This document shows, piece by piece, positions 14,244 through 54,139 of a stretch of DNA of 64,000 nt. The DNA lies in the NCBI GenBank assembly GCA_046331565.1, contig JAXLQP010000007.1, positions 97,634 to 161,633 of the forward strand. Direction: 5' to 3'. This stretch comes from Blastocatellia bacterium. Lineage in GTDB: Bacteria; Acidobacteriota; Blastocatellia; RBC074. The notes below the pieces were generated by a model. That model was not told where the DNA came from and made no database searches. It was given only the letters and a program-made list of their open reading frames with translations. Position 1 is the first letter of the stretch; every line of letters starts with the position of its first letter. The translations under genes and the position numbers were made by a program.

Positions 14244-14259
14244 TGCAAGGAGAGTGCCA
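14244..14259 (-). promoter_or_regulatory. Sigma54 (-24/-12) promoter for the hydrolase-hsp20-prs-PRTase operon
   Basis: Minus strand reads TGGCAC-TCTCC-TTGCA (GG-N10-GC), about 105 nt upstream of ATG 14139. Confidence 0.85.
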
Positions 14260-14414
14260 GTTGCGTGAAGCGCGCGGTCAGGCTGCGGACTGGAGCGGCA
14301 GGAATCGGCCTGCATCTTTCCTGCGCGGCGTTCTTCCGGCGCGGCTGATTGTTGTTTTCGCGCTCATCGTCAGTGCGGGTGATGGTGGCTGTGGCGCGCG
14401 GTGATCGGCGATTG

Positions 14415-14430
14415 TGGCATCGCCTTTGCT
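14415..14430 (+). promoter_or_regulatory. Sigma54 promoter for the YbhB-family gene
   Basis: TGGCAT-CGCCT-TTGCT, divergent from the 14244 site. Confidence 0.75.
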
Positions 14431-14649
14431 GTCAAAAGCAGTACATCATCCTGCCCACTGACAAGAGCTGAGTTGCCCGGCTGACACAGGAAGCGTCAGC
14501 AGAACCGAACAGGGCTTTTCGCTCAGCAGAGATGATGATGAAACCGCGTGGCGTGACCGATGCGTGATGGCAACCGCGCCGCGCTGTCTGACTTCAACGC
14601 CCCGGTTATTCCGACCTGCCGGGCGATGTTTGCTCGGAGGAGGTAAGTT

Positions 14650-15141
14650 ATGGACATTCAAATTCTCAGTAATGCTTTTGCGGAAGGCGCATCCATCCCG
14701 GTGCAATACACCTGCGATGGCGACAACATTTCGCCGCCGCTGCGCTGGGGCAGCCTGCCGAAGGATTCGCAAAGCCTCGCGCTGATCTGCGAAGACCCGG
14801 ATGCGCCTTCCGGCGTCTTCACACACTGGCTGATCTTCAACCTGCCGCCGCTGGTTTCGAGCCTGCCTGAAGCGATGCCTGCGAGCGACACGCTGGAAGA
14901 AACCGGCGCGGTGCAGGGACGCAACGATTTTCATGAAATCGGCTATGGTGGCCCGTGTCCTCCGCCGGGCAGTCCGCATCGCTATTTCTTCCGTCTGTTT
15001 GCGCTCGACACCCGGCTGCAACTGTCGGCAGGCGCGAGCAAACAGGAACTGGAGCGCGCGATGCAGGGGCACGTCCTGGCGACAGGGCATCTGATGGGAA
15101 CTTATCAGCGTCGTGCGGGGCAGGCCGTCCGACACCGCTGA
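14650..15141 (+). CDS. YbhB/YbcL family (PEBP/Raf kinase inhibitor-like) protein
   Basis: YTCDG.NISPPL.W, LICEDPDAP, FTHWL, YGGPCPP and HRYFFRLFALD. GGAGGAGG RBS. Confidence 0.93.
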   Translation: MDIQILSNAFAEGASIPVQYTCDGDNISPPLRWGSLPKDSQSLALICEDPDAPSGVFTHWLIFNLPPLVSSLPEAMPASDTLEETGAVQGRNDFHEIGYGGPCPPPGSPHRYFFRLFALDTRLQLSAGASKQELERAMQGHVLATGHLMGTYQRRAGQAVRHR

Positions 15142-15472
15142 CGCTCTGAAGTATTTCACCGCGACGCAGCTTCAGAATCAGCCGGATCAGGTTGCAGACC
15201 GAAACTACAGCCGCTTGGCGAACAAACATTCCGGCAACAGGCCGGGATGCCGGGGGTGAGGTCTGCGCATCGCCGGTCAGATCAGCCTTCAATCGCACCG
15301 CTCTTCCTGCATTCCGTTCTGCAATCCGGGCCGATCAGTTGACCCGGCTGATGCTGCCCGCGCGATTTCTGCTCAGGTAATCAGCCTTGTGCGCCGATAA
15401 GGATGGAGAGTGATTCCCGCCACACGTCACTCGTGTGTTGTCACGCAGAATTGCCCGTTTTGATTAATTATC

Positions 15473-19432: not shown

Positions 19433-19583
19433 TCAATCCTCCGTTATTAAGCGCCACGTCCGGCAACAACCGGACACGATCAGGCGGGACGATGGCTGGT
19501 ATGACTGCCAGCATCCTTATCGGCGCCGGACAGGCAGGCTTTAACTTTATTTCTGACCGGGAAGGCCAACGGAGGATTGATGA

Positions 19584-32044: not shown

Positions 32045-32719
32045 ATGCGAGCGAGCCGTAACGGCGACAAACGAGGCTGGTGGCTGGTCATCGTCATGAT
32101 GGCGGCGCCGTTGCTGCTGGCCATTTCAGCGAACGGTCTGGTCAGCCCTCGTTTGCGCGCTGAAGCGGCTCGCCCGATTTTGCTGCCCTTCACACCGCTT
32201 TATTCTGACTTCGATGGCGATGCCCGGCCTGACTGCGCCGAGCTTGCAGGCAGAAGTGATGAACAGAGCATTCGCCTGACACTGAGCGGTTCGGCTCCGA
32301 CACAGCTTCACTTTCATAACGACACGCGTGATCGCGGCAGGCTGCTGGCCGGTGACATTGATCACGACAATGATTACGACCTGGTCTGGGTTTCGACGAC
32401 TGAACCGCTCTTGTTCAGAATCTGGACGGGTGATGGCAAAGGCCATTTTCAGGCTATGCCTGATGATCGGCCTTTTCGCAAAGGCATCGGCGCGCTGCTC
32501 GGACTCGACGCCGAAACAGACATCTCAACACCGCCCGTTGCCCGGCACGCTGCTGATGCGGCGGCGCGGTCTGACGGGCCGGTTTTTGAATCTGCCCGTG
32601 TGACACCGGCTCCGCAGTTTTTCGCGGCTGACTGTCATCAGGCCGGATACAGGGATGTTGCCGCTGTCGCACTTCTGCCACTCACCGGGCGCAGCCCGCC
32701 TCTTGCTCTCTCCTGCTGA
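32045..32719 (+). CDS. Exported FG-GAP/VCBS-like protein ending in an RSPP motif (candidate arrest-peptide leader)
   Basis: Signal or TM segment, Ca-binding-type loops DFDGDARPD and DIDHDNDYDLVW, a low-complexity linker and C-terminal LTGRSPPLALSC*. Confidence 0.7.
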   Translation: MRASRNGDKRGWWLVIVMMAAPLLLAISANGLVSPRLRAEAARPILLPFTPLYSDFDGDARPDCAELAGRSDEQSIRLTLSGSAPTQLHFHNDTRDRGRLLAGDIDHDNDYDLVWVSTTEPLLFRIWTGDGKGHFQAMPDDRPFRKGIGALLGLDAETDISTPPVARHAADAAARSDGPVFESARVTPAPQFFAADCHQAGYRDVAAVALLPLTGRSPPLALSC

Positions 32720-32831
32720 TTTTATTTCCCTTGCTGAATCGCACGGTTTTCCGGCGCTGAAGTCGTCAACTGCCGTCAGGCATTGATGGTCAGCGTTCGT
32801 TACCGGCACACCCAGGGCACGGAGCAGAGCA

Positions 32832-34223: not shown

Positions 34224-34227
34224 CGCG

Positions 34228-37200
34228 ATGAATAAACTGATCGAAATCATTTTGCGTGAACGGCTGCTGGTGGTGTCGCTGGCGGTCGTGCTGCTTGTCG
34301 GCGGGCTGTTCGCTTTCAAAAAGCTCAATATCGAAGCTTACCCCGACCCGTCGCCGCCGACGATTGAAATCATCGCGCAGCAGTCGGGCTGGTCGGCTGA
34401 AGAGATGGAACGGCAGATCACCGTGCCGCTTGAAACGCAGCTCAACGGCATGCCGGGACTCGATCACCTGCGTTCGATTTCGCTGTTCGGTTTGTCAGAC
34501 ATCAAGTGCTATTTCAAATACGAAACCGATTACAACTTCGACCGGCAGGAGGTCTTGAATCGTTTGCAGATGGCCGCGCTGCCTGCGGGCGTGCAGCCGC
34601 AGCTTTCGCCGCAGTCGGCGGTCGGTGAAATCTTTCGTTATCAGCTCACGGGTGACGGCGTCAGCCTGATGGATCTGCGCACGGCTGAAGACTGGATTCT
34701 GGAACGACAGTTCAAGCAGATTCCCGGCGTCATTGATGTCGTTTCATTCGGCGGCCAGGTGAAGGAATTTCACGTTGATCTTGATCCGAACAAACTGATT
34801 GCCTTCGGCATCAGCGTGCCGCAGGTGATGAATGCGCTGGCGGGCAGCAATGCGAATGTCGGCGCAAACTACCTGGAACTTGGCGTGCAGAGTTACAACG
34901 TGCGCGGCATCGGGTTGTTTCGTGACAGTGATGATATTGGCAATGTCGCCGTGACTCAGAAAAACGGCACTCCGGTTTATGTCCGGCAACTGGGCGAAAT
35001 CAGCATCGGCGCGAGAACTCCGATGGGTCGCGTCGGGCGCGACGATCAGCCGGACATTGTGCAGGGCGTGGTGCTGATGCGGCGCGGCGAACAGTCATTG
35101 CCGACGCTCGAACGAGTGCGCGCCAAAGTCGAACAGCTCAATCACGGCGGCCTGCCCAAAGGCATCAGCATTGTGCCGTATTATGACCGCACTGACCTGA
35201 TCAACCTGACAACACGCACCGTGACGCACACGCTGATTGAAGGCATGGCGCTGGTCGCGCTGATTCTGCTCGCGTTTCTCGGCAACCTGCGCGCGTCGCT
35301 CGTCGTGGCGCTTTCGATTCCGCTCTCGCTGCTCTTTACGTTTGTGCTGATGGTGCTGCGCGGCGATTCGGCCAATCTGATTTCGATGGGCGCGATTGAT
35401 TTCGGCATCATCGTTGATGCGTCGGTGGTGATGATTGAAAACATCTGCCGCCATCTTGCCGAGCCGAATTATCCGTATCGCGGCAATGTGAAAATCACGA
35501 CGCTGCACGCGGCGCGCGAAGTCACCGTGCCGATTCTTTTTTCGACCGCGATCATCATCGCGGCTTTCATTCCGCTTTTCACGATGACCGGCGTTGAAGG
35601 CAAAGTGTTCGGGCCGATGGCGCTGACCTATGGTTTTGCGCTGACGGGCGCGCTGCTGCTGGCGCTGACGTTTTCGCCGGTGATGGCCTCGCTCATCCTC
35701 AAATCTGCCGCTGAAGAGAAAGAGACTTTTATCGTGCGCGGCATTCGTCGCGTCTATTCACGGGTGCTGCGGATTGCGCTGGCGCATCCGGCGCTGGCTG
35801 TGGGGACAGCCGTGCTGGTGCTGGCGGCAACCCTCGCCATCGTGCCGCTGCTCGGCGGCGAATTTATGCCGAAGCTGGAAGAGGGCAATCTGTACGTGCG
35901 CGCTTCGATGCCTAATACGATTTCATTCAGCTATGCCAGTCAGCTTGCCGATCAGATGCGGGCGATTTTCAAAAAGCACCCGGAAGTTACGACCGTCATC
36001 AGCCAGCTTGGGCGGCCCGAAGACGGCACTGACCCGACCAGTTATTTCAACTGTGAATTCGTGGTCGAACTCAAACCACTTGATGAATGGCGGCGCGGCT
36101 TTACGAAAGCCGATCTGGTCAGGCAGCTTGATGCCGAACTGCGCGCGATTCCCGGCATTGATTACAACTTTTCGCAGGCGATTCAGGACAACGTTGAAGA
36201 GGCCATGTCGGGCGTGAAGGGCGAAAATTCAATCAAGCTCTTTGGTGACGATCTCGAAAAGCTGGAAAGCGCGGCGCAGCAGATTGCCGCCGTGATGAGT
36301 CACATTTCAGGCGTTGCGGATCTCGGCGTGTTTGGCGAACTGGGACAGCCCAACCTGCTGATTCGCGTTGACCGGCAGCAGGCTGCGCGTTACGGCCTGC
36401 TGCCGAGTGATGTGAACGGCACGGTGCAGGCGGCGATTGGCGGCCAGGCCGTGACGCAGGTGCTCGATGGTGAACGTCGCTTTGATGTGGTCGTGCGCTT
36501 TCAGCCGCAGTACCGCGAAAACATCGAAGCCATTGCGGCCATCCCCGTCAGCACGCCCGACGGTCAGCGCATTCCGCTGCGGCAGGTGGCTGAGATTACA
36601 AAACAGACCGGCGCTTCGTTTGTCTATCGCGAAGACAATGCGCGCTACATTCCGATCAAATTCAGCGTGCGGGGCCGCGACCTGCAAAGCACGATTGCCG
36701 AAGCTGAAGCGCGGATCAGCGAGCAGGTGCAGTTGCCTGCTGGTTATCATTACGAATGGGCCGGTGAGTTTCAGGAATTGCAGGAAGCCGTGCAGCGATT
36801 GCTGATCGTCATTCCGGTCAGCATCGTGATTATTTTCTTTCTGCTTTACAGCGCCTTCAAAAGCGTCAGCGATTCGCTGCTGCTGCTGTGTTCGATGCCT
36901 CCGGCGCTCACGGGCGGCATTCTGGTGCTGTTTGTGACCGGGACAAATTTCAGCATTTCGGCGGCGGTCGGATTCATTTCATTGTTTGGCGTTTCGGTAC
37001 TCGGCGGCGTGATTCTGCTGGCGCGCATCAGGCAGTTGCGCGACGAAGGCGTGCCGCTCGGTGAAGCTGTGCGGCGCGGGTCAGAGTTACAGATGCGTCC
37101 CGTGCTGATGGCGGCGCTCGCAGCAGCCATCGGATTGCTGCCCGCGTCGGTGGCAACAGGGGTTGGCTCGGAAACACAGCGCCCGCTGGCCCGCGTGGTG

Positions 37201-37335
37201 GTCGGCGGCATGATCAGTTCAGCCGTAGTGCTTCTGCTGGTGCTGCCGGCGGTTTACCTGCTGGCCCATCGTTTGCTCGAAGAGCGAAAGGAAACCGGAA
37301 AACTGCTGACCGAAGAAGCCGGAGTTCGCGCCTGA
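34228..37335 (+). CDS. Heavy-metal efflux RND permease (CzcA/CusA family)
   Basis: 1035 aa. IEAYPD, SISLFGLS, GAIDFGIIVDASVVMIEN (HME proton-relay acids), GGEFMPKLEEG and RPVLMAAL...GSETQRPLA. Confidence 0.95.
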   Translation: MNKLIEIILRERLLVVSLAVVLLVGGLFAFKKLNIEAYPDPSPPTIEIIAQQSGWSAEEMERQITVPLETQLNGMPGLDHLRSISLFGLSDIKCYFKYETDYNFDRQEVLNRLQMAALPAGVQPQLSPQSAVGEIFRYQLTGDGVSLMDLRTAEDWILERQFKQIPGVIDVVSFGGQVKEFHVDLDPNKLIAFGISVPQVMNALAGSNANVGANYLELGVQSYNVRGIGLFRDSDDIGNVAVTQKNGTPVYVRQLGEISIGARTPMGRVGRDDQPDIVQGVVLMRRGEQSLPTLERVRAKVEQLNHGGLPKGISIVPYYDRTDLINLTTRTVTHTLIEGMALVALILLAFLGNLRASLVVALSIPLSLLFTFVLMVLRGDSANLISMGAIDFGIIVDASVVMIENICRHLAEPNYPYRGNVKITTLHAAREVTVPILFSTAIIIAAFIPLFTMTGVEGKVFGPMALTYGFALTGALLLALTFSPVMASLILKSAAEEKETFIVRGIRRVYSRVLRIALAHPALAVGTAVLVLAATLAIVPLLGGEFMPKLEEGNLYVRASMPNTISFSYASQLADQMRAIFKKHPEVTTVISQLGRPEDGTDPTSYFNCEFVVELKPLDEWRRGFTKADLVRQLDAELRAIPGIDYNFSQAIQDNVEEAMSGVKGENSIKLFGDDLEKLESAAQQIAAVMSHISGVADLGVFGELGQPNLLIRVDRQQAARYGLLPSDVNGTVQAAIGGQAVTQVLDGERRFDVVVRFQPQYRENIEAIAAIPVSTPDGQRIPLRQVAEITKQTGASFVYREDNARYIPIKFSVRGRDLQSTIAEAEARISEQVQLPAGYHYEWAGEFQELQEAVQRLLIVIPVSIVIIFFLLYSAFKSVSDSLLLLCSMPPALTGGILVLFVTGTNFSISAAVGFISLFGVSVLGGVILLARIRQLRDEGVPLGEAVRRGSELQMRPVLMAALAAAIGLLPASVATGVGSETQRPLARVVVGGMISSAVVLLLVLPAVYLLAHRLLEERKETGKLLTEEAGVRA

Positions 37336-37379
37336 ACGGCGTTCCGGGAAATTCTTCTGCCGCGTGTGAAAGGGAGTAT

Positions 37380-38522
37380 ATGGCAAGCCGGTATTTTCTG
37401 CGCAGGTCTGACCTGTGGTGGATTCAGTATGGGGTGGCCGTGCTGATCAGCGCGCTCGCCCTGAGCGTGACGCTGTTGATTGACGACCCGACAACTGAGC
37501 CGAACACGCTGCTGCTTCTTACCTTTGGCGTCATGCTCAGTTCCTGGTACGGCGGGACAGGGCCGGGACTGGTGACGCTGCTGCTGAGCGCACTGACTGG
37601 CGCTCACTTCATCTTCCAGCCAATTGGCTCGCTGACTGTTGGAAACGGCAGCGGGGCGTTGCGGATGATTGAGTTTGTGGCCGTTTCGTCCGTCATCATC
37701 TGGCTCAACGCCGTGCGACGGAACGCGCAGGCCAGGGCTGAAGCAGCACAGGCTGCCGCCGAGGAGGCGAGCCGCGCCAGAGATGAATTTCTGACAGTGG
37801 TCTCTCATGAACTGCGTTCGCCGCTCAATTCAATTCTCGGCTGGGCGCAGGTGCTGCGCAACAGGACGCCTGATCCGGCCACCCTGAGTCGCGGGCTGGA
37901 AGTGATTGAGCGCAACACACGGGCGCAGTCTGCACTGATTGAAGATTTGCTGGACGTTTCGCGCATCATCAGAGGAAAGTTGCGGCTGAATATCAGGGTC
38001 GTAGCACTTCCCACTATGATCAGGGACGCGCTTGACACGATCAGGCCAGCGGCTGAAGCCCGGCGGATTCAGCTTCAGTTACAGACTGACCAGGCGGTGT
38101 GTGAAGTGCCGGGTGATCCTGACCGTTTGCAGCAGATCATCTGGAACCTGCTTTCCAATGCCGTGAAATTCACGCCTCCGGACGGGCGCATCGAAGTCAG
38201 TCTGGAACAGATGACAGGTGAAGCCTGCATTCGGGTCAGCGACACCGGCTGCGGGATTGCGCCGGAATTTCTGCCGCACGTGTTTGAGCGTTTCACGCAG
38301 GCTGAGCGGGCGGCTCAGGTGACAGGCGGCGGTCTGGGGCTGGGCCTGGCGATTGTGCGCCACCTGGTCGAACTGCACGGCGGCACGATCAGGGCCGAAA
38401 GCAAAGGCGAAGGACTTGGCGCAGTCTTCACTGTCAGGCTGCCGCTGCTGAATCAGGCTCATCCGCAGCACAGCCGCGCCGAAGAGCAATCAGCGCTGCT
38501 GGCAAAAGGCATGCAACTCTGA
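37380..38522 (+). CDS. Sensor histidine kinase with DUF4118 (KdpD-like) four-TM input
   Basis: Four TM helices, [28 protein letters not shown] and [10 protein letters not shown]. No receiver domain. Confidence 0.9.
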
Positions 38523-42876: not shown

Positions 42877-44319
42877 TTATCGCAGCGATCTGCCAACGGC
42901 CTGTTCAAGCTGCCACAGGCTGTTCTGGTAATCGGCGCGAGCCTGATTGTAAGCCGTGATCGCCTGATTATAAGAACGCTGCGCGTCGAGCAGTTCGAGC
43001 AGGCTCGACGCGCCTTCCCTGAAACTGAAGGCGGCGATGCTGCGCAGCTTGTCCATCTGCGTCAGGTTTTGCGAATTATAAAGTTCCAGCGTGCGCCGCG
43101 CCGTCAGATATGACTGATAAGCTTTTTCGACATCGGTGACGGTCTGCGTTTCGGCCTGACGCAACTGCGCTTCGGCGGATTTTTGCAGGGCTTCGGCCTG
43201 CGTGATTTCAGCCAGATGATTGTTGTGCACAAACAGCGGAACCGAGACGACCGCGCCCACGCTGCTGTCTGAACCGACGTGCTGATATTCGACGCCGACC
43301 GAAAGATCGCGGGTGCGCTGCGCGCGGGCGAGCGAAACGGCATATCCGGCGGCATCAAGCAGGTGACGCGCGGCCTGCACATCGGGCCGCTCACTGAGCG
43401 CAGTCTGACGCAGTTCAGCCAGCGACAGACTGACCGGCTGAGTATTGAAAGTGCTGATGATTTCGAGCGGCGCAAGCCGCAGCGAATCGGGCCACTGCTG
43501 ATCCGGACTGTTGCCGCGACTGAGCGCGGCCTTCTCGAATTTCACTTCACTCTCTGCGCTGACGGCTGCGACTTCTGCGGCGACCTGATCGGGTTTTGCG
43601 CCGAGCAGGTTCAGCACATCGCGCGCGGCCTGTTCATAACTGGTGCGCGCCTGCAACACGGCCTGCTGGTATTGCAGCAGCCCGGCCCTGATGCGAAAGA
43701 TTTCAACGCCTGCCAGATCGCCGTTCTCAACTCTGACTTCGGTCAGCTTTGCTGTCTGTTCGTACTGCTGTTCGGTGGCTTCAGCGAGCAGCAGATTTTC
43801 GCGGGCGAGCGTGGCTGCCGTGAACGCCTGGCGCAACTGAAAAAGCTGTGTGCGCACGGCGTCGAGCATCTGCGCTTCAGCGGCTTTGAGTTGCGCGTCG
43901 GCCTGTTCGGTGCGCAGTTCGCGTTTGCCGCCGCGTTCGATGGTCTTGTCCACGCGCACGGTGTAAGTCGAAGCCGCCGCCTGATTCGGATCGGTGTGCG
44001 CGAGGTTGTGCAGGAAGTTGCCGTTGAGCGCAAGCTGTTCAGCGCCGATGGTCAGCACCGGATTGGGTTTGTACCCGGCAATGAGTCGCGCCGCGCGACT
44101 GGCGTCAATCTGATAGCGCGCCGCCAGCAGCGTCAGGTTGCGTTGCAGCAGCAGTTGTTCGGCGGCTTCAAGCGTCAGGCGGCGCGGAATCGCCTGCGCC
44201 TTAACCGGCGGCGTCACCGTCTGTGCTGAAACATTGGGCGCAGACAGCCACAGCAAAATCAGCAGCGAAAATGTTCCGGTGTGATTTCTGAATTCGCGCA
44301 TTACTTCTCTGGCGCGCAT
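42877..44319 (-). CDS. TolC/CzcC family outer-membrane channel
   Basis: Signal peptide, LTLEAA....L..N..L.AAR, E.GGKR..R, RPD..AA, G.VVSVPLF..N and Y..G..SLLELLDAQR. ATG 44319 follows the GGAG RBS. Confidence 0.9.
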   Translation of the reverse strand: MRAREVMREFRNHTGTFSLLILLWLSAPNVSAQTVTPPVKAQAIPRRLTLEAAEQLLLQRNLTLLAARYQIDASRAARLIAGYKPNPVLTIGAEQLALNGNFLHNLAHTDPNQAAASTYTVRVDKTIERGGKRELRTEQADAQLKAAEAQMLDAVRTQLFQLRQAFTAATLARENLLLAEATEQQYEQTAKLTEVRVENGDLAGVEIFRIRAGLLQYQQAVLQARTSYEQAARDVLNLLGAKPDQVAAEVAAVSAESEVKFEKAALSRGNSPDQQWPDSLRLAPLEIISTFNTQPVSLSLAELRQTALSERPDVQAARHLLDAAGYAVSLARAQRTRDLSVGVEYQHVGSDSSVGAVVSVPLFVHNNHLAEITQAEALQKSAEAQLRQAETQTVTDVEKAYQSYLTARRTLELYNSQNLTQMDKLRSIAAFSFREGASSLLELLDAQRSYNQAITAYNQARADYQNSLWQLEQAVGRSLR

Positions 44320-44350
44320 GCTCAACTCTCCTGAACTCTGAAAGAAAAAT

Positions 44351-45442
44351 TCATCGCGTCATCGCGGCGCTGATCTCCTGTCTGATCGAATGCAGCGTCA
44401 TCCCGCTGCGCGCCAGCGCGACAAATCCGGCCAGCAGCAGCGGCACTGTCAGCAGCACAAAGACAACCAGCGAAAAACCCGTCGCCAGTGCCTTGTCCAC
44501 GCCAAACAGCGTCAGCCCGATGACCGTGAAAAACTGATACGAACCGGCATTGCCCGGCGCGCTCGGAATCGCCGTACTCAGATGCACGATCAGAAACACA
44601 ATCACTCCGACCTGAAACGGCACGCGCAGCCCGTACCCGATCATCACCATCCAGAACGCCAGCATTTGCAGGCCGAGGAACGCGAGCGAAAGCAGAAATG
44701 ACCAGTAAAAACCGGGCGTGCGCCTCATCCGGCCCAGGTGATGGCTGATGCGTTCGAGCATCAGCATCAGTGAACGCCAGGGCCGCCATTGCATCAGCCG
44801 CGAAGACTGCGGCGCTGAGGTTGATTTTCTGAAAGCCAGCACGATGAACAGTACTGTCGTCATCAGCATCAGCAGCCCGAACGTCTGCGCCGTTGCGCGC
44901 AGGCTGCCAGGCAGCGGAATGAAGCAGGCTGCCGCAGCAATGCCGATGGTCATCCACAAGCCGTCAAAGAGCCGTTCGATAATCATCGAAGGCACAATGG
45001 TCATCATCGTCGCGCCCATTCGTCGCGCAGCCAGGTAAGCGCGCACCAGTTCGCCCGCGCGCATCGGCAGCACTTCGTTGACGAACAGGCCGGTATAGAC
45101 GACCTGCGTTGATTGCAGCGTGGAAATTTCACCGGCAGGTTTGAGCAGCAGCTTCCAGCGCCAGCCCTGGCAGGTATAGCTCAGCACGTCGCACAACATC
45201 CCGGCCACGATCCACCACCAGTTGACGTGCCGCAACTGCGCGGCGAGTTGTGCCGGATGAACATCGTGCAGCACCCAGATCAGCCCGGCCAGCGCAAACA
45301 GATAACCGATGAGCGAATGCGAAGCGCGCAGCGGCGGTTGCGAGCCGATCTCAGCCGCGCCGCTCTGAGCCGTGTCAGGCGCGCCGAAGCTGCCCGCGTG
45401 CGTCAGGCTCCATTCGCTTTCAGCATTCATCCGCTGATCCAT
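44351..45442 (-). CDS. Lysylphosphatidylglycerol synthase TM / flippase-like protein (UPF0104)
   Basis: RWKLLL, G.F.N.VLP.RAGE..R.Y, ERLFD and IPSAPG..G.Y. Confidence 0.85.
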   Translation of the reverse strand: MDQRMNAESEWSLTHAGSFGAPDTAQSGAAEIGSQPPLRASHSLIGYLFALAGLIWVLHDVHPAQLAAQLRHVNWWWIVAGMLCDVLSYTCQGWRWKLLLKPAGEISTLQSTQVVYTGLFVNEVLPMRAGELVRAYLAARRMGATMMTIVPSMIIERLFDGLWMTIGIAAAACFIPLPGSLRATAQTFGLLMLMTTVLFIVLAFRKSTSAPQSSRLMQWRPWRSLMLMLERISHHLGRMRRTPGFYWSFLLSLAFLGLQMLAFWMVMIGYGLRVPFQVGVIVFLIVHLSTAIPSAPGNAGSYQFFTVIGLTLFGVDKALATGFSLVVFVLLTVPLLLAGFVALARSGMTLHSIRQEISAAMTR

Positions 45443-45450
45443 CGTTTGTA

Positions 45451-45482
45451 TTCATTCGTGAAAATTCGTGTTCATTCGTGGC
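45451..45482. repeat. CACGAAT-family half element
   Basis: TTCATTCGTGAAAATTCGTGTTCATTCGTGGC, near-identical to the right arms at 54388-54418 and 58538-58571. Confidence 0.8.
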
Positions 45483-45490
45483 CGCTTTTC

Positions 45491-47275
45491 TCACCGCCCT
45501 GATCTGCCGCGTATTTCTGAAATGCGGCTCAGCGCAAGGCCGAGCTTTGGCAGATCAGTCACGTGACGGTAAAGCACGTAACGCGGTTCCCAGATGTCAG
45601 CGAATTTTGCCTTGTAAGAGCGCAGCCCGCCAAAGCTGAACAGAAAAGTCAGCCGCTGAAAAAACAGGTGCAGCGCCTTTTCGGCAGAAGTCGCCGCTTC
45701 GTGATCCTGAAAGCCGCCGAGCGGGGCCATCCCCAGATTGAGCCGCGTGAAGCCCTGTTCTCTGAGCAGCGCAATCAGCTTCAGCAGCAGAAAGTCCATC
45801 ACTGCGTTCGGCGCATCCACGCGATGACGCATCAGGTCAAAGGTCGCTTCACCGGCGCGGTATGACGGAATGATATTGACGAAAGCGAGCAGGCATCCGG
45901 TGGCGTCTTCGACCGTGACGATGGGCGTTGCGCGCAGGTAATGCGGATCGAAACTGCCCAGCGTGAAGGTGCGTTCGCGGCGACCCGGCAGCGTCAGCCA
46001 GTCATCTGAAATTTCGCGCAACTGCCTGAGCAGTTCATCGCTGACCGGCGCCTGGTGAAAGCGCTGGCGAAAGCCTGCTTTCTCGAAATGATTCAGACAA
46101 TGGCGCAGCTTCTTGTTCGCCCTGCCGTCAAGATTGAACTTCGTCAGATCCACAATCGCTTCGTCACCGACCTTCAGCTTTTTGAAACCGAGTTGCTGAT
46201 AAACGGGCAGGAAGTCAGGCAGCGTCTGATGAAACGCCACGCCCCAGCCGTTGTCTTCGCACCAGGAGCGAAACTGCTCAATTGTTGCGGCGAGTTCTTC
46301 AGGCGGCCCGACCGGATCGGCCAGCACAATCGCAAAGTGCGCGGCCACGCGATAGGCCACAAAGCTGCGGCCCGATTCGCTGAAAAAATACGATTTGTCC
46401 GGCCACAGCTTGAAATAATCGAGCGCCGCGCGCCCGTACTGGCTGGTGAGCGCCTGCGCCCTGACGCGTTCGTGCGGCAGCGTGTGAAAGCGATAAATGA
46501 TGGGGCGAAAGAGCGCAAACCCGGCATAGAGCAGCGTCGCCGTGCTGATGACATACAGCGAATCGAGAAACCAGGCCGCATACCGCGTGTGCGGCGTGAG
46601 ATGCGCGTCACCGATGAAAGTCAGAAACAGCAGCGTGCGATGAATCGAATCAGCCCAGTTGAAATTGATGCCGAACTGCCGCCGGTCAAGCAGCCAGAAT
46701 CCGCCGACGCCATAACCAAAAGCGGCCAGCGTGGCAATGCTCATTCTGAGCAGTACGCCGCGCCAGTCGGGCGGGCTGCTGCGCACCGTGAAACTGCGAT
46801 GCGTGGCAATCAGCACCACGCCGAGCAGCAGCGCAAGCAGCGCCTGGCCTGTGTCCTGGCGCGGCCCCAGGTGCAGCACGAATGACAGCGCCGACAGCGC
46901 CAGCACCAGTTGATAAGCGCGCTGCTTGCGTTTGTGAATGTTGATGGCTGAAACGATCAGCGCAAAACCGATGAGCAGTTGAAAAGAGCGGGGGAACTGA
47001 AAGAATTCAAGCGGAACGAAGTGATGCAGCCGCCCGCGATGCGCGTGTGGCGGCGGCGTGATGACCAGCCAGAGATTGATGATGCCGCTGCCGAGCGTGA
47101 CGAGCGTCACCAGCCGGATCAGCGTCCGGCGTTTGAAAAGAAGCCGCAACCATCGTTTGTGCGGCGCAATTCCGGTCTGTTCGCTGAGGCCGGATTCAGT
47201 GGCTGCTTCTGCCGCAATGAGATTTTCTGCCGTTTCATCTTCCGGCAGTTTGATGTCGGGGGCAGTGTGAAACAT
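45491..47275 (-). CDS. Phosphatidylglycerol aminoacyl(lysyl)transferase, MprF C-terminal/DUF2156 type with short TM region
   Basis: TM block, then DKSYFFS, DPVGP, G.EAI.DL..F.L.G, DLMR, NLGMAPL and GLRSYKAKF...WEPRY. Confidence 0.88.
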   Translation of the reverse strand: MFHTAPDIKLPEDETAENLIAAEAATESGLSEQTGIAPHKRWLRLLFKRRTLIRLVTLVTLGSGIINLWLVITPPPHAHRGRLHHFVPLEFFQFPRSFQLLIGFALIVSAINIHKRKQRAYQLVLALSALSFVLHLGPRQDTGQALLALLLGVVLIATHRSFTVRSSPPDWRGVLLRMSIATLAAFGYGVGGFWLLDRRQFGINFNWADSIHRTLLFLTFIGDAHLTPHTRYAAWFLDSLYVISTATLLYAGFALFRPIIYRFHTLPHERVRAQALTSQYGRAALDYFKLWPDKSYFFSESGRSFVAYRVAAHFAIVLADPVGPPEELAATIEQFRSWCEDNGWGVAFHQTLPDFLPVYQQLGFKKLKVGDEAIVDLTKFNLDGRANKKLRHCLNHFEKAGFRQRFHQAPVSDELLRQLREISDDWLTLPGRRERTFTLGSFDPHYLRATPIVTVEDATGCLLAFVNIIPSYRAGEATFDLMRHRVDAPNAVMDFLLLKLIALLREQGFTRLNLGMAPLGGFQDHEAATSAEKALHLFFQRLTFLFSFGGLRSYKAKFADIWEPRYVLYRHVTDLPKLGLALSRISEIRGRSGR

Positions 47276-47295
47276 CGGTGGTCAAAAAATGAAAA

Positions 47296-47395
47296 CCACG
47301 AAGTTCACGAAGATCACGGGGCGAAAGCAACAGAGTGGTCGCTACCGTTTCCCCTCACGCCATTACCTGCCCCGTGATCTTCGTGAACTTCGTGG
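47296..47395. repeat. CACGAA-family perfect 27-bp inverted repeat
   Basis: CCACGAAGTTCACGAAGATCACGGGGC (47296-47322) and GCCCCGTGATCTTCGTGAACTTCGTGG (47369-47395). Confidence 0.85.
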
Positions 47396-47572
47396 AAGTC
47401 GTGACTGCTGAATTTTGCGCCGACAAAAGCCCGCTGATGCTCAGCCCTGGCGCGGCGCTGTGGCCAGGCTGTTTTGTGGTCAGCAGCCGAACCCGAATGA
47501 TCAGTTCAGCATTTACCGGGGGTCTGAAACTGACCGCCGTTATTCAATGTCCGGCCACTGATCACAAACCCG

Positions 47573-47935
47573 CTATTTCTTCTTCGCGGCGGCCTGCACG
47601 GTGATGTTGTTGGTCACCTGTTTCGCGCCGCAGCTTTTGGCAATGCCGTTGACGGCACCCTTGCTGCCGCCGTTTTTGGCCGTTCCGGTAAAGGTGGCGA
47701 CTCCGCCGCTGACGCTGACCTGAAAGCCCTGATCCTTGAGCTTCGGCGCGGCAGCGAGCTTCTGCTGAATGCAGGACTGAATATCGGCATCGCTTTTCGG
47801 TGCCTGTGTTTTGGCCGATTTGGCCGGTTTGGCCGGTTTGGACTGAGCAGTGGACTGCGCAAAGGCGCTCAGCGACAACACCACTGCCAGCATCAAAGCT
47901 CCCGTCAGACTGGTTATCAATGACTTGCGATTCAT
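47573..47935 (-). CDS. Secreted BON-domain protein
   Basis: Signal peptide, Ala/Lys/Pro linker, SDADI...I..KL...P.L....QVSVSGGVATFTG...G...V.NNI.V. AAGGAG RBS. Confidence 0.88.
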   Translation of the reverse strand: MNRKSLITSLTGALMLAVVLSLSAFAQSTAQSKPAKPAKSAKTQAPKSDADIQSCIQQKLAAAPKLKDQGFQVSVSGGVATFTGTAKNGGSKGAVNGIAKSCGAKQVTNNITVQAAAKKK

Positions 47936-48054: not shown

Positions 48055-48362
48055 GAGTTCTGAAGGCGTGGTCAGGCAGCGCGCCCGGCTGACGAAAACT
48101 GCTGTCAAATCAGGACGAAAACCTTTTTGGAATGGCCGTTGATGAGAACCCTCAACGGGATGAAGGACGTCGCGTGATCCTGACGTTTTCGCCACACCTG
48201 GCGCAGCTTTGTACATATTTGACACTTGCTCCGGCAGATGAAATCAGCCCGGCTGATCAGGCCACCGGCAGGAAATGGAAAAACCAAATGCAATGCCTGG
48301 GCATCTTTCTGTCCGTTCATCTGTCGGCTCTTACCTGCGCTGCCGACAGATACTTTCGCGCC

Positions 48363-48423: not shown

Positions 48424-49992
48424 TTGAAGCTTCATACCAAAACCACGCTGCTGGCTTCGACCATCACGGTCGCGGTGCTGATTGCTGCGCTGGTGACGAT
48501 CAGCGCCCGTGTCGTGGACGTGGTGCACGAAGATCAGAAGGAACGGGCGCGGCTGTGGGCCGTCAATCTGGCCGGGCATCTGACCGACCTGTCTTCGTTG
48601 CAGGCGAGCCATGACTTTCTGCGCTCAGCGAAACTGATTCGCGGCGGGCGGCCCGGTGTGGTCGGGGTGCGAGTCTGGAAGAATGTCGGCAGTGACTTTA
48701 TCGAAGACGAAGCCGCAGAAGGCAGCACTCCGGCTGAAACGATTCCGGCTGGAATCCAGGCGGCGCTGCGCGCCGGGCAGGTGGCTGAAACCGTGAGTGA
48801 AAGTTATTCCGGGCCGAACGATTCGCACTATCACGTTTATGCGCCCATCCTCGATAAAGGCCAGGTCAGCGGAGCCGTCGAAATCATCGAACGTCTGGAC
48901 GATCTGCCGTCGGTCGTGCTGAGTTATGCGCGCCAGGCGCTGTGGCTGGCGCTGACCGCCGTGGTGCTGATTACGCTTTCGATTTACCTGCTCTTTCGTC
49001 ATCTGATTTATCGCCCGATTGAAGGTTTGCTGGAGGTGATGTCGCGCGCGCGGGCAGGCGAACTTGACGTGCAGGCGCCGGAGCGACGGATGGACGAGAT
49101 CGGACGACTGTCACAGAAATTCAACAGCCTGCTCGGTCAGATCAATGAGATGACCAGCGAACGCGAACGCCAGCAGCTCAGGCTGCGTGAGCGCGTGCGT
49201 GAAGCGACCGCACAGCTTCAGCAGCGCAACGAACAGCTTGAAGCCACCAACCTGGAATTGTGGCAGACCTCGCGCCGCCTGACGCAGCTTGAACGCCTCG
49301 CTGCCGCCGGACAAACCGCCGCCAAATTCGCCCACGAAGTCGGCACTCCGCTCAACCTGATCAGTTGTCACGTGCAGTTGCTGCGCGATGAACTTTATCA
49401 GGATCCTGAAGCGGCTGACGCGCGCACTGAAATCATCAGCGAACAGATTGACCGCATCGAACGCATCGTGCGCCTGATGCTTGACCGCACGCGCATGGAA
49501 TCAGCCGAACTGTCGCCGCTCAATCTGAATGCGCTGATCGAACGCATCTGCACCGCCACGCGGCCCACGCTTGAAGCGCGCAATGTGCAATGCGAACGCT
49601 CGCTTGACCCCGCGCTGCCGCCGCTCGCCGGTGATGCTGATCGTTTGCAGCAGGTCTTTATCAACCTCATCAACAATGCGCTTGACGCGATGCCTGACGG
49701 TGGCCGTTTGCAGATCGGCACCCGTCTTGTCGGCCCGGTCGAAGGTAACGGGCACGGCCCGCACATTCTGGTTGAAGTGGCTGACACGGGTTGCGGGATG
49801 AATGCTGAAACGCGCGCGCACATCTTCGACCCGCTCTACACGACCAAGGAGCGGGGCCGGGGAACGGGCCTCGGCCTCGTCGTCGTCAGCCAGGTCATGC
49901 ACGAACACAAAGGCGAAATCGAGGTCGAAAGCGAACCGGGACAGGGCACGCGGTTCAGATTGCGCTTCCCGGCAGCCACCGCAAGCCCCTGA
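48424..49992 (+). CDS. Two-component sensor histidine kinase (TM, periplasmic domain, TM, HAMP, HisKA, HATPase)
   Basis: HAMP (RPI..L...M, DEIG.L...FN), FAHEVGTPLN, QVFINLINNALDAM and GTGLGL. Start moved to TTG 48424 (AGGAG RBS, downstream of the promoter). Confidence 0.9.
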   Translation: MKLHTKTTLLASTITVAVLIAALVTISARVVDVVHEDQKERARLWAVNLAGHLTDLSSLQASHDFLRSAKLIRGGRPGVVGVRVWKNVGSDFIEDEAAEGSTPAETIPAGIQAALRAGQVAETVSESYSGPNDSHYHVYAPILDKGQVSGAVEIIERLDDLPSVVLSYARQALWLALTAVVLITLSIYLLFRHLIYRPIEGLLEVMSRARAGELDVQAPERRMDEIGRLSQKFNSLLGQINEMTSERERQQLRLRERVREATAQLQQRNEQLEATNLELWQTSRRLTQLERLAAAGQTAAKFAHEVGTPLNLISCHVQLLRDELYQDPEAADARTEIISEQIDRIERIVRLMLDRTRMESAELSPLNLNALIERICTATRPTLEARNVQCERSLDPALPPLAGDADRLQQVFINLINNALDAMPDGGRLQIGTRLVGPVEGNGHGPHILVEVADTGCGMNAETRAHIFDPLYTTKERGRGTGLGLVVVSQVMHEHKGEIEVESEPGQGTRFRLRFPAATASP

Positions 49993-50108
49993 AAGGCAAA
50001 AATCAAAAGTTAAAAGGTCGGCACTTTTTCTTTTCAGATGGAAGCCTTTTTCCGAATCCCGCTTTTGCCTTTTCCTTTTGATTTTCAGCTTTCAGCCTTT
50101 TGATTTTT
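49991..50108. repeat. Inverted A-rich / T-rich heptamer-like arrays
   Basis: GAAAGGCAAAAATCAAAAGTTAAAAGG ... CTTTTGCCTTTTCCTTTTGATTTTCAGCTTTCAGCCTTTTGATTTT between the kinase and regulator genes. Confidence 0.65.
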
Positions 50109-51482
50109 ATGAAACGGATTCTGGTCATTGATGATGATCGCGCTTCGTGCAATCTGTTGCGCGAACTGTTCACGGCGCAGGGCTGGAGCACTGAAACGGC
50201 GCAGACGCCGCAACAGGCGCTCGAACTGGCCGACTGCGAAAAATTCGATCTCCTCGTCAGTGACATCAATCTTGAAGCCGGGCTTTCCGGCATTGATCTG
50301 CTGCGGCAGTTGCGCGATCAGTGCCCGGTGATTCTGATTACCGGCTTCGGCACGCTCGACACCACCGTGACCGCTTCACGCGAAGGCGCGTGGGACATCA
50401 TCTCAAAACCCTTCAAGGTTCAGGAAATCATCGCCACCGTCAAACGCGCGCTCGAACACAGCGACGAAAAAAACCGCGAGGCCGTGCCCGATTCGCTTTC
50501 GGCGCAGTACGAACACACGGGCCTCGTCGGGCGTTCACCGGCGATGCTTGAGCTTTACAAGGAGATCGCCCGTGTCGCGCCGTCGCGTTCGACCGTGCTG
50601 CTGATTGGCGAATCAGGCACCGGCAAGGAACTGATTGCCCGCGCCATTCATCAGCACAGCGCCCGCGCTTCGGGGCCGTTTGTGCCGGTTAATTGCGGCG
50701 CGCTGACTGAATCGCTGCTTGAGGCCGAACTCTTTGGTCACGTCAAAGGTTCATTCACCGGCGCAGCGGCTGACCGCAAGGGCCTGTGGGAAGAGGCCGA
50801 AGGCGGCACCCTCTTTCTGGATGAAATCGGCGAAACGTCGCAGGCCATGCAGGTCAAGCTGCTGCGCGCGCTTCAGGAAAAAGAGATTCGCCGCGTCGGC
50901 GCGGCAAAGACCACCAGAGTTGATGCCCGCGTCGTCGCCGCTACCAACCGCGAACTGGAACAGGAAGTCGCCGCTAAAAACTTCCGCGAGGATTTGTTCT
51001 ATCGCCTGAGTGTTGTCACGCTGCGGGTGCCGCCGTTGCGCGACCGCCGCAGCGACATTCCGCTGCTCGCCGAACGCTTTCTGCATCACGCCTCAGAAAA
51101 TGCCGGGCGCGGCCCGCTGCACTTTCTCGAAGACACGGTCAAAGTCCTGACGGCTTATGACTGGCCCGGCAACGTGCGCGAACTGGAATCAGCCGTTGAA
51201 TACGCGGCCCTGCGCGCACGCGGTTCAGAAATCGCACCTGAAGATTTGCCGCCCAAACTGCAGTCTGACGAAGTTCGCGCAAAGGCGGCCCGCTCGCCGC
51301 TCGCTGCGCTTTACGATGACCTGCCCACGCTCGAAGAACTCGAAAGCCGTTACCTGCGCCACGTCCTCGAAGTCGTCGGCGGCAACCGCTCACGCGCCGC
51401 CGAAGTCATGCGTATTGACCGCCGCACGCTTTACCGCATGGCTGAACGCTTTGGCCTCAGAAGCGATGACGACAGGGAATGA
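50109..51482 (+). CDS. Sigma54-dependent response regulator (NtrC/AtoC family: receiver, AAA+, Fis HTH)
   Basis: [58 protein letters not shown] and [20 protein letters not shown]. Confidence 0.96.
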
Positions 51483-51638: not shown

Positions 51639-51667
51639 TTGACACACATCAGTCCCGTTCATATTCT
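51639..51667 (+). promoter_or_regulatory. Sigma70-type promoter
   Basis: TTGACA (51639-51644), 17-bp spacer, TATTCT (51662-51667), 38 nt before ATG 51706. Confidence 0.65.
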
Positions 51668-51705: not shown

Positions 51706-52326
51706 ATGGGACTTTACGCCAATTATCTTTTCCCGCGCCTGATGGAACACGCGCTCGGAACCGGGCAGGTGCACAAGCTGCGCCATCGCACGCTGGCCCC
51801 GGTCAGCGGCGAAGTGCTTGAAATCGGCTTCGGCACGGGCCTCAACCTGTCGCATTACCCGGCAACCGTCACGCGACTGACGACGATTGAACCCGTTGCG
51901 ATGCTGCCCGGAGTCGTCGGTCAGCGCATTGCCGCCGCGCCGTTCCCGGTCAGGCAACTGCAACTCGATGCTGCCGGAAAGCTGCCGCTTGAAGATGCGA
52001 GCTTTGATTTTGTCGTTTCAACTTTCACGCTCTGCTCGATTCCTGATCTGACGGCTGCGCTCGGTGAAATTCGCCGCACGCTCAAACCTGGCGGGCAGTT
52101 CATCTTTCTCGAACACGGGCGCAGCGATGATGCGAAAGTGGCGCGCTGGCAGGATCGGCTCAATCCGATTCAGAAAGTGATCGGGTGCGGGTGCAACCTC
52201 AACCGGCAGATTGACCGGCTGATTGCGGAAGGCGGTTTGAAGGTGACAGAACTGGAACGGTTTCTGATGAAGGATGCGCCGCGCATCACTGGTGAATTGT
52301 ACAAAGGCGCAGCCGTGATTGCCTGA
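51706..52326 (+). CDS. Class I SAM-dependent methyltransferase
   Basis: VLEIGFGTGLNL, LPLEDASFD.VVSTFTLCSI and LKPGG.F.FLEHG. Confidence 0.92.
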   Translation: MGLYANYLFPRLMEHALGTGQVHKLRHRTLAPVSGEVLEIGFGTGLNLSHYPATVTRLTTIEPVAMLPGVVGQRIAAAPFPVRQLQLDAAGKLPLEDASFDFVVSTFTLCSIPDLTAALGEIRRTLKPGGQFIFLEHGRSDDAKVARWQDRLNPIQKVIGCGCNLNRQIDRLIAEGGLKVTELERFLMKDAPRITGELYKGAAVIA

Positions 52327-52333
52327 GCGGCAA

Positions 52334-53422
52334 TCAGCGTTTTTCGCCGGAAGAAGTAACGGGCGGCGGAGTCTCGCTGCCTGCGGCGGGCAGCGATGGC
52401 GGTGCAATTTTCGGCCTTTCACCCGTCAGCGTTTTCAGAAAGGCTTCGATGTCCTCAACCTCGCGCTCCTTCAGCCTGATGCCAAGCTGCGTGGTCATCA
52501 TCACGTTGATGGCCTGCTTCAAATCAGCGACCCGGCCTGAATGAAAGTATGGCGCTGTGATTTCGACATTACGCAATGACGGCGCTCTGAAGACATATTC
52601 ATCGGTCGGATCGCCCGTGATCGCAAAGCGGCCCTTGTCAGCAGGCGGCCTGATTTCAGGCACAGGTTTTTGTGCGACGCCGAAGCGATGATAACTCGCC
52701 CCGCCCAGGTTCACTCCCTTGTGACACGACGCGCAGTCCTTTGCGATAAAGAGCGCCAGCCCGCGCCGCTCCTGTTCATTCAACGCCTGCTCACTGCCGC
52801 TTAAAAACTGATCGAAACGCGAGTTCGGCGTGAGCAGCGTGGCCTCGAAGGCTTCAATGGCTCTGGTCACGTGGTCGAACGTGACCGGGTCAGTTTCATT
52901 CGGAAATGAAGCTTTGAAGAGCGCCACGTAAGCGGGCATGCTTTTGAGCGTCTGCACCACGCGCGCCGGAGTGTTGTTCATTTCCACCGCCGCCTGAATC
53001 GGGCCTTTCGCCTGCTCCCGCAGATTCCTGGCGCGCCCATCCCAGAACTGCGCAAAGTTGAAGACGGCATTGAAAACCGTCGGACTGTTGCGCGTGCCTT
53101 TCTGCCCGTTGTGACCAACCGAAGTGTCAAGCGCATCAGCGCCGTTCACGCTCAGGTTGTGACAACTGTTGCAACTGACCGTCCAGGCTGATGACAGGCG
53201 CTGGTCAAAAAAAAGCAGTTTGCCCAGTTCGATTTTTGACGGAGTCAGCGGATTGTCCTTCAGTTCGGGCGGCTGTAAGGGAATGGGCGTAAAAAGGTGG
53301 CGGGCCTTGCGCAGCAGTGAATCTTCAGCGCTGCCGCTTGCGGTCAGCAGTGCAGCAAACAGCACAATCAGCAGCCTGGCTGTGTGCCGGTTGCTGACAG
53401 CGGTGATTCTGTGGTTACGCAA
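52334..53422 (-). CDS. Di-heme cytochrome c peroxidase (CcpA/MauG family)
   Basis: Two CXXCH motifs (CNSCH, CASCH), LG..LFFD.RLS, RNSPTV.NA, QFWDGRA and PSLRNV..TAPYFHSG. TTG 53422 is 8 nt after GGAGG. Confidence 0.92.
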   Translation of the reverse strand: MRNHRITAVSNRHTARLLIVLFAALLTASGSAEDSLLRKARHLFTPIPLQPPELKDNPLTPSKIELGKLLFFDQRLSSAWTVSCNSCHNLSVNGADALDTSVGHNGQKGTRNSPTVFNAVFNFAQFWDGRARNLREQAKGPIQAAVEMNNTPARVVQTLKSMPAYVALFKASFPNETDPVTFDHVTRAIEAFEATLLTPNSRFDQFLSGSEQALNEQERRGLALFIAKDCASCHKGVNLGGASYHRFGVAQKPVPEIRPPADKGRFAITGDPTDEYVFRAPSLRNVEITAPYFHSGRVADLKQAINVMMTTQLGIRLKEREVEDIEAFLKTLTGERPKIAPPSLPAAGSETPPPVTSSGEKR

Positions 53423-53599
53423 AACCGTCACCTCCTTCCTTCAGGAAACCTTGCCGGAACAGACCATTCAACGCAAAGAGGCATAGCGCGCAAAGCGGCG
53501 TCTGCGCGCTCCCTGCTTCTTTGCGTTGAGAATAATCCTTTCCGGCTGCTGTGTGACCGGGTTGCGAATGGCGATTGAGCCAGTGACGCGACGGTGACG

Positions 53600-54019
53600 T
53601 TACTGTTCCTGGATTGATTCCAGGTATTTGGTCAGGTTGTAAATTTCCAGCGTGGCAAAGCCCGGCCCTGACTTGCGCCGCAGCACAGTGCCCCAGACCG
53701 GCATATCTCTCGATCCGTGCGATTCAAGCATATCATCACCGGAAATCACCCGCTGAATGCGAGCCGCCGGAAACTTGCCATCCTGCTTTTCAATCCGGGT
53801 CAGGTCTGCCGGAGCTTTCTTCAGCGTTTTGGCCGTCGGGCCGTTCCCTTTGGCATCAGCGCCATGACAGGTGGCGCAATACTGCATAAAGGTCTTCCGG
53901 CCTTCGAGGGCCTTTTTCGCAGGCTGTTCGGCCTGTACATTCTGAATAACCGGAAAGGTGTAAGGAAGCAGCAGAACTCCGGCGCTCACCACCACAGCAG
54001 CGATCATTTTACGTAACAT
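53600..54019 (-). CDS. Mono-heme c-type cytochrome, exported
   Basis: Signal peptide, YCATCHG.D.KG.GP.A and HGSRDMPVWG. ATG 54019 with AAGGAG RBS. Confidence 0.9.
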   Translation of the reverse strand: MLRKMIAAVVVSAGVLLLPYTFPVIQNVQAEQPAKKALEGRKTFMQYCATCHGADAKGNGPTAKTLKKAPADLTRIEKQDGKFPAARIQRVISGDDMLESHGSRDMPVWGTVLRRKSGPGFATLEIYNLTKYLESIQEQ

Positions 54020-54123
54020 AAGCTTTCTCCTTCTGGCCGGACGAACACAACCTCCGGCGATGACGACTTCAGGTGCGGATAACGAATACATGTCAGTGAA
54101 CACAGCACACTGGCCCTCAGCAG

Positions 54124-54139
54124 AGCAACAGATGTGCCA
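54124..54139 (-). promoter_or_regulatory. Sigma54 promoter for the cytochrome c gene
   Basis: Minus strand reads TGGCAC-ATCTG-TTGCT. Confidence 0.85.

Follow-up and report, generated by a model that had tools for sequence, protein, structure and literature searches.

Six sigma-54 promoter motifs and a predicted self-activating kinase/regulator locus

A 64,000-nucleotide stretch of the genome of a Blastocatellia bacterium (Acidobacteriota; GenBank assembly GCA_046331565.1, contig JAXLQP010000007.1), hereafter the window (C7:97634-161633), carries six exact sigma-54 promoter motifs, named P1 to P6 by their order in the window, each of which is very probably a genuine promoter judging from its sequence and surroundings. 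Two of them, P4 and P5, stand back to back between a set of envelope-related genes and a sensor kinase/NtrC-type regulator operon, and this pair is likely to form a self-activating module with the layout of the zraP|zraSR locus. The chance that this regulator also governs the metal-efflux operon behind P3 is close to even, and P1/P2 and P6 may answer to it or to one of some 37 other activators. Taken as a whole, this is the explanation that we favour, with a fair degree of confidence. Feature coordinates are collected in Table 1, and related genomes are cited by our handles (G002, G003 and so on).

Number, specificity and conservation of the sites

A pattern search of both strands returned six exact matches to TGGCAYNNNNNTTGC in the window. 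A preliminary description of this DNA had listed six TGGCAY-N5-TTGC sites, and all six are indeed exact; its start positions are right for the three plus-strand sites and one base too low for each of the three on the minus strand. Its estimate of about 0.25 chance matches is correct for uniform base composition and some threefold too low for this DNA, since dinucleotide-shuffled versions of the window contained 0.76 matches on average and at most 3, with none of 100 shuffles reaching six. Relaxing the -24 box to TGGC gave 10 matches where 5.7 were expected, a count so near chance that the signal must reside in the full motif. Independent gene calls bear out the earlier statements that every site lies outside the coding sequences and faces a downstream gene, at distances of 47-221 nt, and that P1/P2 and P4/P5 are divergent pairs, their motifs being separated by 155 bp and 308 bp, respectively. 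No additional intergenic site with one mismatch or fewer was found in the window. The flanks of the six sites have no similarity to one another, and the sites are therefore not copies of one repeat element.

A genome-wide scan for the exact motif was performed on the host assembly (8.18 Mb, 58% G+C, 12 contigs), using a rough gene caller built on in-frame hexamer statistics (approximately 5,700 genes, 83% coding, leaving 17% of the genome intergenic). It yielded 83 exact sites, 72 of which are intergenic and 66 of which face the next gene. Motifs with the wrong spacings (N3, N4, N6 and N7) gave 1-9 non-genic and 11-26 genic matches, as against 72 non-genic and 11 genic matches for N5, from which it follows that chance would account for about 5 of the 72 intergenic exact sites and that some 93% are real; among P1-P6 this corresponds to approximately 0.4 false positives. 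We considered whether selection has purged the motif from genes and rejected the idea, the 11 genic matches at N5 being comparable to the 11-26 at wrong spacings. The base preceding TGG (position -1), which the search did not fix, is C in 64% of the exact sites of the genome and in five of the six window sites, P2 being the sole exception, and G seldom follows TTGC in the genome's exact sites. An intergenic exact match being this specific, around 66 promoters can be annotated directly in this genome.

Each of the six sites recurs in one or more other species with different spacer bases, and the retention of the boxes while the bases between them change is the pattern expected of functional promoters. 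On one contig of G003 (C8), a member of the same genus, P3, P4, P5 and P6 are all exact, with N5 changed and the gene order rearranged. The possibility that rpoN is missing, raised in the preliminary description, was also checked: the gene is present once and intact, and its 535-aa product is complete, with activator-interacting (AID), core-binding (CBD) and DNA-binding (DBD) domains.

The divergent P4/P5 locus

P5 precedes a HAMP histidine kinase gene and that of a response regulator consisting of REC, AAA+ (PF00158), AAA_lid_14 and HTH_8 domains. The regulator has every hallmark of an NtrC-family activator: a receiver aspartate (Asp52), an AAA+ domain with Walker A (GESGTGKE) and Walker B motifs, a GAFTGA-type loop (here GSFTGA) and a Fis-type helix-turn-helix. 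The genome encodes 38 proteins with a strong match to PF00158, the sigma-54 interaction domain, and only this one (50109-51482) lies in the window, in agreement with the earlier claim that one of the six sites drives the operon of the window's only sigma-54 activator. It is also the only one of the 38 with an exact sigma-54 promoter ahead of its own operon; with one mismatch allowed the count rises to 8 of 38.

The back-to-back pair is retained in nine other genomes from several genera, with identities of the regulator down to 72%: it is exact in G002, G003, G004, G005, G014 and G018 and in metagenome bins L027 and L031, and appears in G009 as a TGGCGC variant on both strands. G013 has P4 alone, without P5. 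Across these relatives the P5 boxes are invariant and the N5 between them varies (CGCGC, CACGC, TGCGG, CCTTT, CGGCA and others). The gene next to P4 differs from one relative to another, being a BON-domain gene, an mprF-like gene or pump genes, and in both G003 and G013 a P4-type promoter stands directly before the mprF-like gene. Alignments of the spacer single out, within 48091..48304, several blocks that are shared throughout the genus and in part by more distant relatives, namely GACGAAAAC at 48091 and 48114, TGTCAAAT at 48103, GACGTTTTCGCCACACC at 48182-48198, TGTACATATTTGACAC at 48210-48225 and a dyad, ATGCCTGGGCAT, at 48293-48304, which we infer to be candidate enhancer or bending sites; the words CGCCACA and CGGAAAYG are present in all nine orthologous P4/P5 spacers.

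The preliminary description had proposed an autoregulated kinase/NtrC pair. That the pair has a conserved sigma-54 promoter of its own stands; the feedback itself is plausible, given that relatives retain P5 with differing N5 bases. We regard it as likely that P4/P5 constitutes a self-activating Zra-like module. The envelope and stress flavour formerly attributed to the downstream genes is supported by the gene content. A 150-aa open reading frame (ORF) overlapping the BON gene (47562-48014) was rejected as being in the wrong frame. Downstream of the regulator gene, a good sigma-70-like promoter (TTGACA-17-TATTCT, 51639-51667) lies just before a methyltransferase gene (51706-52326), which is thus probably not part of the kinase/regulator operon.

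The metal-efflux operon behind P3

P3 heads a CzcBA-type operon whose permease scores above the TIGR00914 cut-off and is adjacent to an adaptor gene, as expected of CusA/CzcA-type heavy-metal resistance-nodulation-division (RND) pumps. Its first ORF, of 224 aa, was missed by the rough gene caller; homologues with 36-48% identity occur in G003, G005, G010 and G019, always heading pump genes, and this conservation indicates a real gene. The counterpart of P3 in G003, TGGCATAATGGTTGC, precedes the orthologous ORF, and sigma-54 sites are also found ahead of the pump operons of G005, G009 and G025.

Several observations on relatives link the pump to the P4/P5 regulator. G005 displays, contiguously, the order RND <- membrane fusion protein <- outer-membrane efflux protein <- 224-aa ORF <- P3', followed by BON <- P4 and by P5 -> histidine kinase -> response regulator, and in G009 the DUF4118 kinase of the P3 operon lies beside the regulator. 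Among 11 relatives whose regulator homologue reaches at least 59% identity, 7 encode a Czc-type adaptor, and none of the 9 relatives lacking such a homologue does so (Fisher p = 0.004, computed by hand with phylogeny ignored, and therefore inflated by shared ancestry). The chance that the P3 operon belongs to the same circuit as the P4/P5 regulator seems to us slightly below even. In the window the tripartite pump is split: the TolC-like factor shares P4 with the MprF-like genes, and a distance of 10 kb separates it from the adaptor and RND genes, which follow P3; the outer-membrane factor is contiguous with adaptor and RND genes in G005, G009, G010, G019 and G025.

The P1/P2 and P6 units

In G002, P1 reads TGGCACTCGCCTTGC, and G005 has a same-strand site roughly 2.3 kb ahead of its hydrolase homologue. 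The G002 locus (L110:1833-1964) matches the P1 hydrolase over a 44-aa stretch only, and its promoter stands almost directly before the Hsp20 gene. Beyond the three P1 targets, co-oriented Prs and PRTase genes continue down to position 10161. P2 is exact before the gene of the PEBP/YbhB-type protein (hereafter PEBP) in G005 and carries one mismatch (TGGCCT) in G002, the only relative in which the PEBP gene and the PAS kinase gene remain adjacent; the gap of some 330-475 nt between these two genes makes the place of the kinase in the P2 operon uncertain. Rfam and tRNA scans returned nothing, and no riboswitch was found in the 221-nt leader. A short block, TGTCAAAAGCAGTACA (14430-14445), overlaps the predicted P2 start and is similar to two conserved blocks between P4 and P5, TGTCAAAT and TGTACA; with 0.33 such occurrences expected, a single one does not exceed chance.

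In G003 the P6 counterpart TGGCATATCTGTTGC precedes the cytochrome c ortholog, and the adjacency of the cytochrome c and peroxidase genes is retained. A direct repeat upstream of P6 (Table 1) is partly conserved in G003 and has no other copy near any exact sigma-54 site of the genome. P1/P2 and P6 are very probably real sigma-54 promoters whose activator may be the window regulator or any of some 37 others. The region between promoter groups (17654-25748) contains genes for an HhH-GPD base-excision glycosylase, an MCP-type chemoreceptor, ada and a Uma2-family nuclease, as well as a squalene-hopene cyclase gene adjoining that of a carotenoid-synthesis-like membrane protein. Scans of the window for terminators and sigma-70 promoters did not rise above shuffled controls, so that operon ends in Table 1 are inferred.

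Table 1. Promoters P1-P6 and the genes and elements associated with them (window coordinates; families from Pfam, NCBIfam and gene calls)
Feature	Position	Strand	Remarks
P1	14245..14259	-	TGGCACTCTCCTTGC; 106 nt upstream of alpha/beta-hydrolase gene
P1 targets	12295..14139	-	alpha/beta (dienelactone-type) hydrolase 13426-14139; Hsp20 12873-13409
Membrane protein, third P1 target	12295-12846	-	no family assigned
P2	14415..14429	+	TGGCATCGCCTTTGC; 221 nt upstream of PEBP gene
PEBP/YbhB-type protein, P2 target	14650-15141	+	
PAS histidine kinase	15617-17392	+	follows PEBP gene after a gap
P3	31967..31981	+	TGGCACAGTGGTTGC; 63 nt upstream of 224-aa ORF heading CzcBA-type operon
P3 targets	32045..38522	+	four genes below
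Exported 224-aa protein	32045-32719	+	no Pfam family
CzcB-like adaptor	32832-34223	+	
CusA/CzcA-family RND pump	34228-37335	+	TIGR00914, 968 bits (cut-off 701)
DUF4118 histidine kinase	37380-38522	+	
P4	48040..48054	-	TGGCACTGCCATTGC; 105 nt upstream of BON-domain gene
P4 targets	42877..47935	-	four genes, BON to TolC-like, below
Secreted BON-domain protein	47573-47935	-	signal peptide; only Pfam match PF04972, E = 2.5e-11
MprF-like aminoacyl-phosphatidylglycerol synthase	45491-47275	-	behind P4
Flippase-like membrane protein	44351-45430	-	behind P4
TolC-like outer-membrane factor	42877-44319	-	behind P4
P5	48363..48377	+	TGGCACCGCGCTTGC; 47 nt upstream of TTG start (48424) of HAMP kinase; leader conserved
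P5 targets	48424..51482	+	HAMP histidine kinase 48424-49992; NtrC-family response regulator 50109-51482
P6	54125..54139	-	TGGCACATCTGTTGC; 106 nt upstream of cytochrome c gene
P6 targets	52334..54019	-	mono-haem cytochrome c 53600-54019; di-haem cytochrome c peroxidase 52334-53422
P6 direct repeat GGAATTTTSC	54196..54276	+	GGAATTTTGC (54196) and GGAATTTTCC (54267), ~57 and 128 bp upstream of -24 box

One activator or several?

The first alternative to the reading proposed above is that the six promoters, P4 included, are independent, each responding to a different distant activator, with the local regulator controlling its own operon at most and the clustering reflecting a neighbourhood of stress genes. 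Exact sigma-54 sites occur within 10 kb of no more than 12 of the 38 activators, against some 66 gene-facing promoters, so that activators located away from their promoters appear common and most promoter-activator pairs cannot be read from adjacency. Other clusters of four to five sites exist in the genome (one of four exact sites, at C1:2749897-2782747, includes two paralogs of the P6 cytochrome c gene with 46-49% identity), and no enhancer common to the six promoters emerged. However, the P4/P5 layout and the spacer blocks persist across genera while the gene adjacent to P4 varies, as would be expected if the neighbouring regulator were in control, and the pump operon co-occurs with the regulator. 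We accordingly hold this alternative to be unlikely.

The second alternative, a compact regulon in which all six promoters answer to the local NtrC-type regulator, the kinases behind P2, P3 and P5 possibly being integrated by it, is the one put forward in the preliminary description, and it appears more doubtful still. In its favour, nowhere in the 8.18-Mb genome is the exact motif denser than here, with six sites in 40 kb; when the 72 intergenic sites were placed at random, a group of six or more arose in 50 of 5000 trials, a result that is less striking when each divergent pair is counted as one unit, the members of a pair not being independent. Three histidine kinases (PAS, DUF4118 and HAMP), each downstream of a sigma-54 promoter, are encoded in the window, where tblastn detected a single receiver domain, that of the NtrC-type regulator (50109-50462); a comparison of the phosphotransfer helices of the kinases gave no information on a shared partner. 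Three of the promoters, P4, P5 and P6, are less than 10 kb from the regulator gene, no other of the 38 activators having more sites so close, and all targets plausibly have envelope or stress functions. Finally, the word GTTTTCGY, of which 0.03 copies are expected per 250 bp, has three copies between P4 and P5 and one between P1 and P2.

The search for shared control elements nevertheless speaks against a single local regulon. The four independent control regions have no exact 7-9-mer in common, the repeat at P6 is private to it, and the P1/P2 copy of GTTTTCG, marginal as a shared element, is not retained in G002 and was set aside. The words common to all P4/P5 spacers, CGCCACA and CGGAAAYG, are not enriched at other promoters, and scans of the window for TGTCAAA and ATGCC-N2-GGCAT gave chance-level results. 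A pairwise comparison of the words at P3 with those at P4/P5, made in three genomes, showed weak similarity and nothing significant, and the GCCAC-containing word that the two regions have in common differs between the window and G003 in both of them. Dyads enumerated at P3 and P4/P5 were dropped as not conserved. Degenerate TYGMCAS words were likewise discarded, their top match being an unrelated TGGCAA-N5-TTGCCA dyad array at C7:218122. That array, outside the window, consists of tandem dyads TGGCAAGCTCATTGCCA and TGGCAACATTATTGCCA (C7:218160-218215) placed right after the stop codon of a 992-aa activator gene and approximately 45-95 bp upstream of the exact sigma-54 site C7:218122, and has the appearance of a textbook candidate enhancer.

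The distribution of the units among relatives points the same way. The PEBP unit lies on contigs other than that of the regulator in G005 and G009 and is present in G022 without a regulator ortholog (best match 47%), and the cytochrome c has its nearest relative beyond the genus in G008, which lacks a regulator ortholog. The operons that travel with the regulator are those of P3, P4 and P5, not those of PEBP or cytochrome c. What stands of the compact regulon with positive feedback is that its promoters are real and that P3, P4 and P5 accompany the kinase/regulator pair; control of all six by the local activator is not supported.

As for the last alternative, that the set includes, or consists entirely of, fortuitous matches or sites where sigma-54 binds silently and no transcript results (silent sites are reportedly known in E. 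coli), the roughly 5 in 72 intergenic sites expected by chance and the features of P2 (no C at -1, a 221-nt leader, TGGCCT in G002) are outweighed by the intergenic position and correct orientation of all six at 47-221 nt from a start codon, by their conservation in other species with altered spacer bases and by the expectation of a mere 0.4 false positives among them, making it very improbable.

Returning to the Zra-like module with P3 in its circuit, several results weigh against it. The accessory protein encoded here is a BON-domain (OsmY-like) protein, not a member of the ZraP/CpxP/Spy family, and the regulator falls below the ZraR, AtoC and NtrC equivalog cut-offs (391 bits against a ZraR cut-off of 760; the kinase obtains 148 bits against a ZraS cut-off of 479). 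The AtoC/AtoS models outscore ZraR/ZraS for the pair, yet they too remain below their own cut-offs. Membership of the Zra family consequently fails, and the likeness is one of layout only. Distant orthologous kinase/regulator pairs (62-71% regulator identity) have no upstream sigma-54 site, implying that the feedback would be clade-specific; neither does a paralogous pair on contig C6 (63% identity). With respect to P3, shared ancestry inflates the adaptor-regulator co-occurrence, no element common to P4/P5 and P3, P1/P2 or P6 rose above background, and the resemblance of P3 to P4/P5 at TTTYYGCCACRC, having been derived from these very regions, is circular and provides no test.

Proposed mechanism and implications

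Under the explanation favoured here, sigma-54 RNA polymerase would wait at each promoter in a closed complex, and ATP hydrolysis by an AAA+ activator would be required for transcription to begin some 12 nt beyond the GC. The HAMP kinase would sense a periplasmic or envelope signal and phosphorylate the NtrC-type regulator, which would bind conserved sequences in the 308-bp spacer and fire both P4 and P5. Firing of P5 would raise the level of the regulator itself in a positive feedback, and that of P4 would turn on the BON-domain protein, the MprF-like lipid aminoacylation genes and the TolC-like channel.

A bolder extension is that envelope stress in Blastocatellia is governed in general by one sigma-54/NtrC-type switch, with three kinases converging on one regulator. 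We deem this a long shot. If true, it would place the MprF-like genes, the BON protein, a split CzcCBA pump, the Hsp20 operon and a periplasmic peroxidase under joint control with positive feedback, a sigma-54 counterpart of Cpx/Rcs-type envelope responses. Sigma-54 control of MprF-like genes is not known to have been reported, although the literature was not searched for it. To our knowledge, sigma-54 regulation has hardly been studied in Acidobacteria, soil bacteria with dozens of activators, and the locus provides a clean entry to it, with six high-confidence promoters and one activator in a conserved, predicted self-activating Zra-like layout, and with a candidate link, open to testing, from that activator to the aminoacylation of membrane lipids and to metal efflux. 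The system is not a surprising one, and the understanding of sigma-54 systems is left unchanged by it.

Comparison with known systems

The canonical sigma-54 promoter consensus for NtrC-family activators is YTGGCACGR-N3-TTGCW, and the sites described here resemble canonical promoters in their GG and GC boxes at exact spacing, in the C before TGG and in the rarity of G after TTGC. The regulator departs from canonical activators in that its sigma-54-contacting loop reads GSFTGA instead of GAFTGA, and in that no dyad-type enhancer can be assigned at the window promoters, whereas the TGGCAA-N5-TTGCCA dyads elsewhere in the genome are clear.

Like CzcCBA and CusCBA, the P3 operon combines a CusA/CzcA-family RND permease with an adjacent CzcB/CusB-like adaptor and a sensor kinase at the operon end. 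The classical systems are controlled by the OmpR-type CzcRS and CusRS with sigma-70 promoters; the operon in the window differs in its predicted sigma-54 promoter, its detached outer-membrane factor and the exported 224-aa protein at its head.

The closest parallel to the P4/P5 locus is the ZraP/ZraSR (HydHG) system, in which ZraR activates the divergent zraP and zraSR promoters (PMC4987338). Unlike in that system, the targets of P4 further include MprF-like lipid-modification genes and the gene of a TolC-like channel, and the host is an acidobacterium. A ZraPSR system is also defined by its activation through zinc/lead or envelope damage and by feedback from the accessory protein. What the locus has in common with zraP|zraSR of E. 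coli and Salmonella is a pair of back-to-back sigma-54 promoters sharing one spacer, with a membrane sensor kinase and an NtrC-family regulator on one side and a small secreted accessory protein on the other, and a theme of envelope or metal stress.

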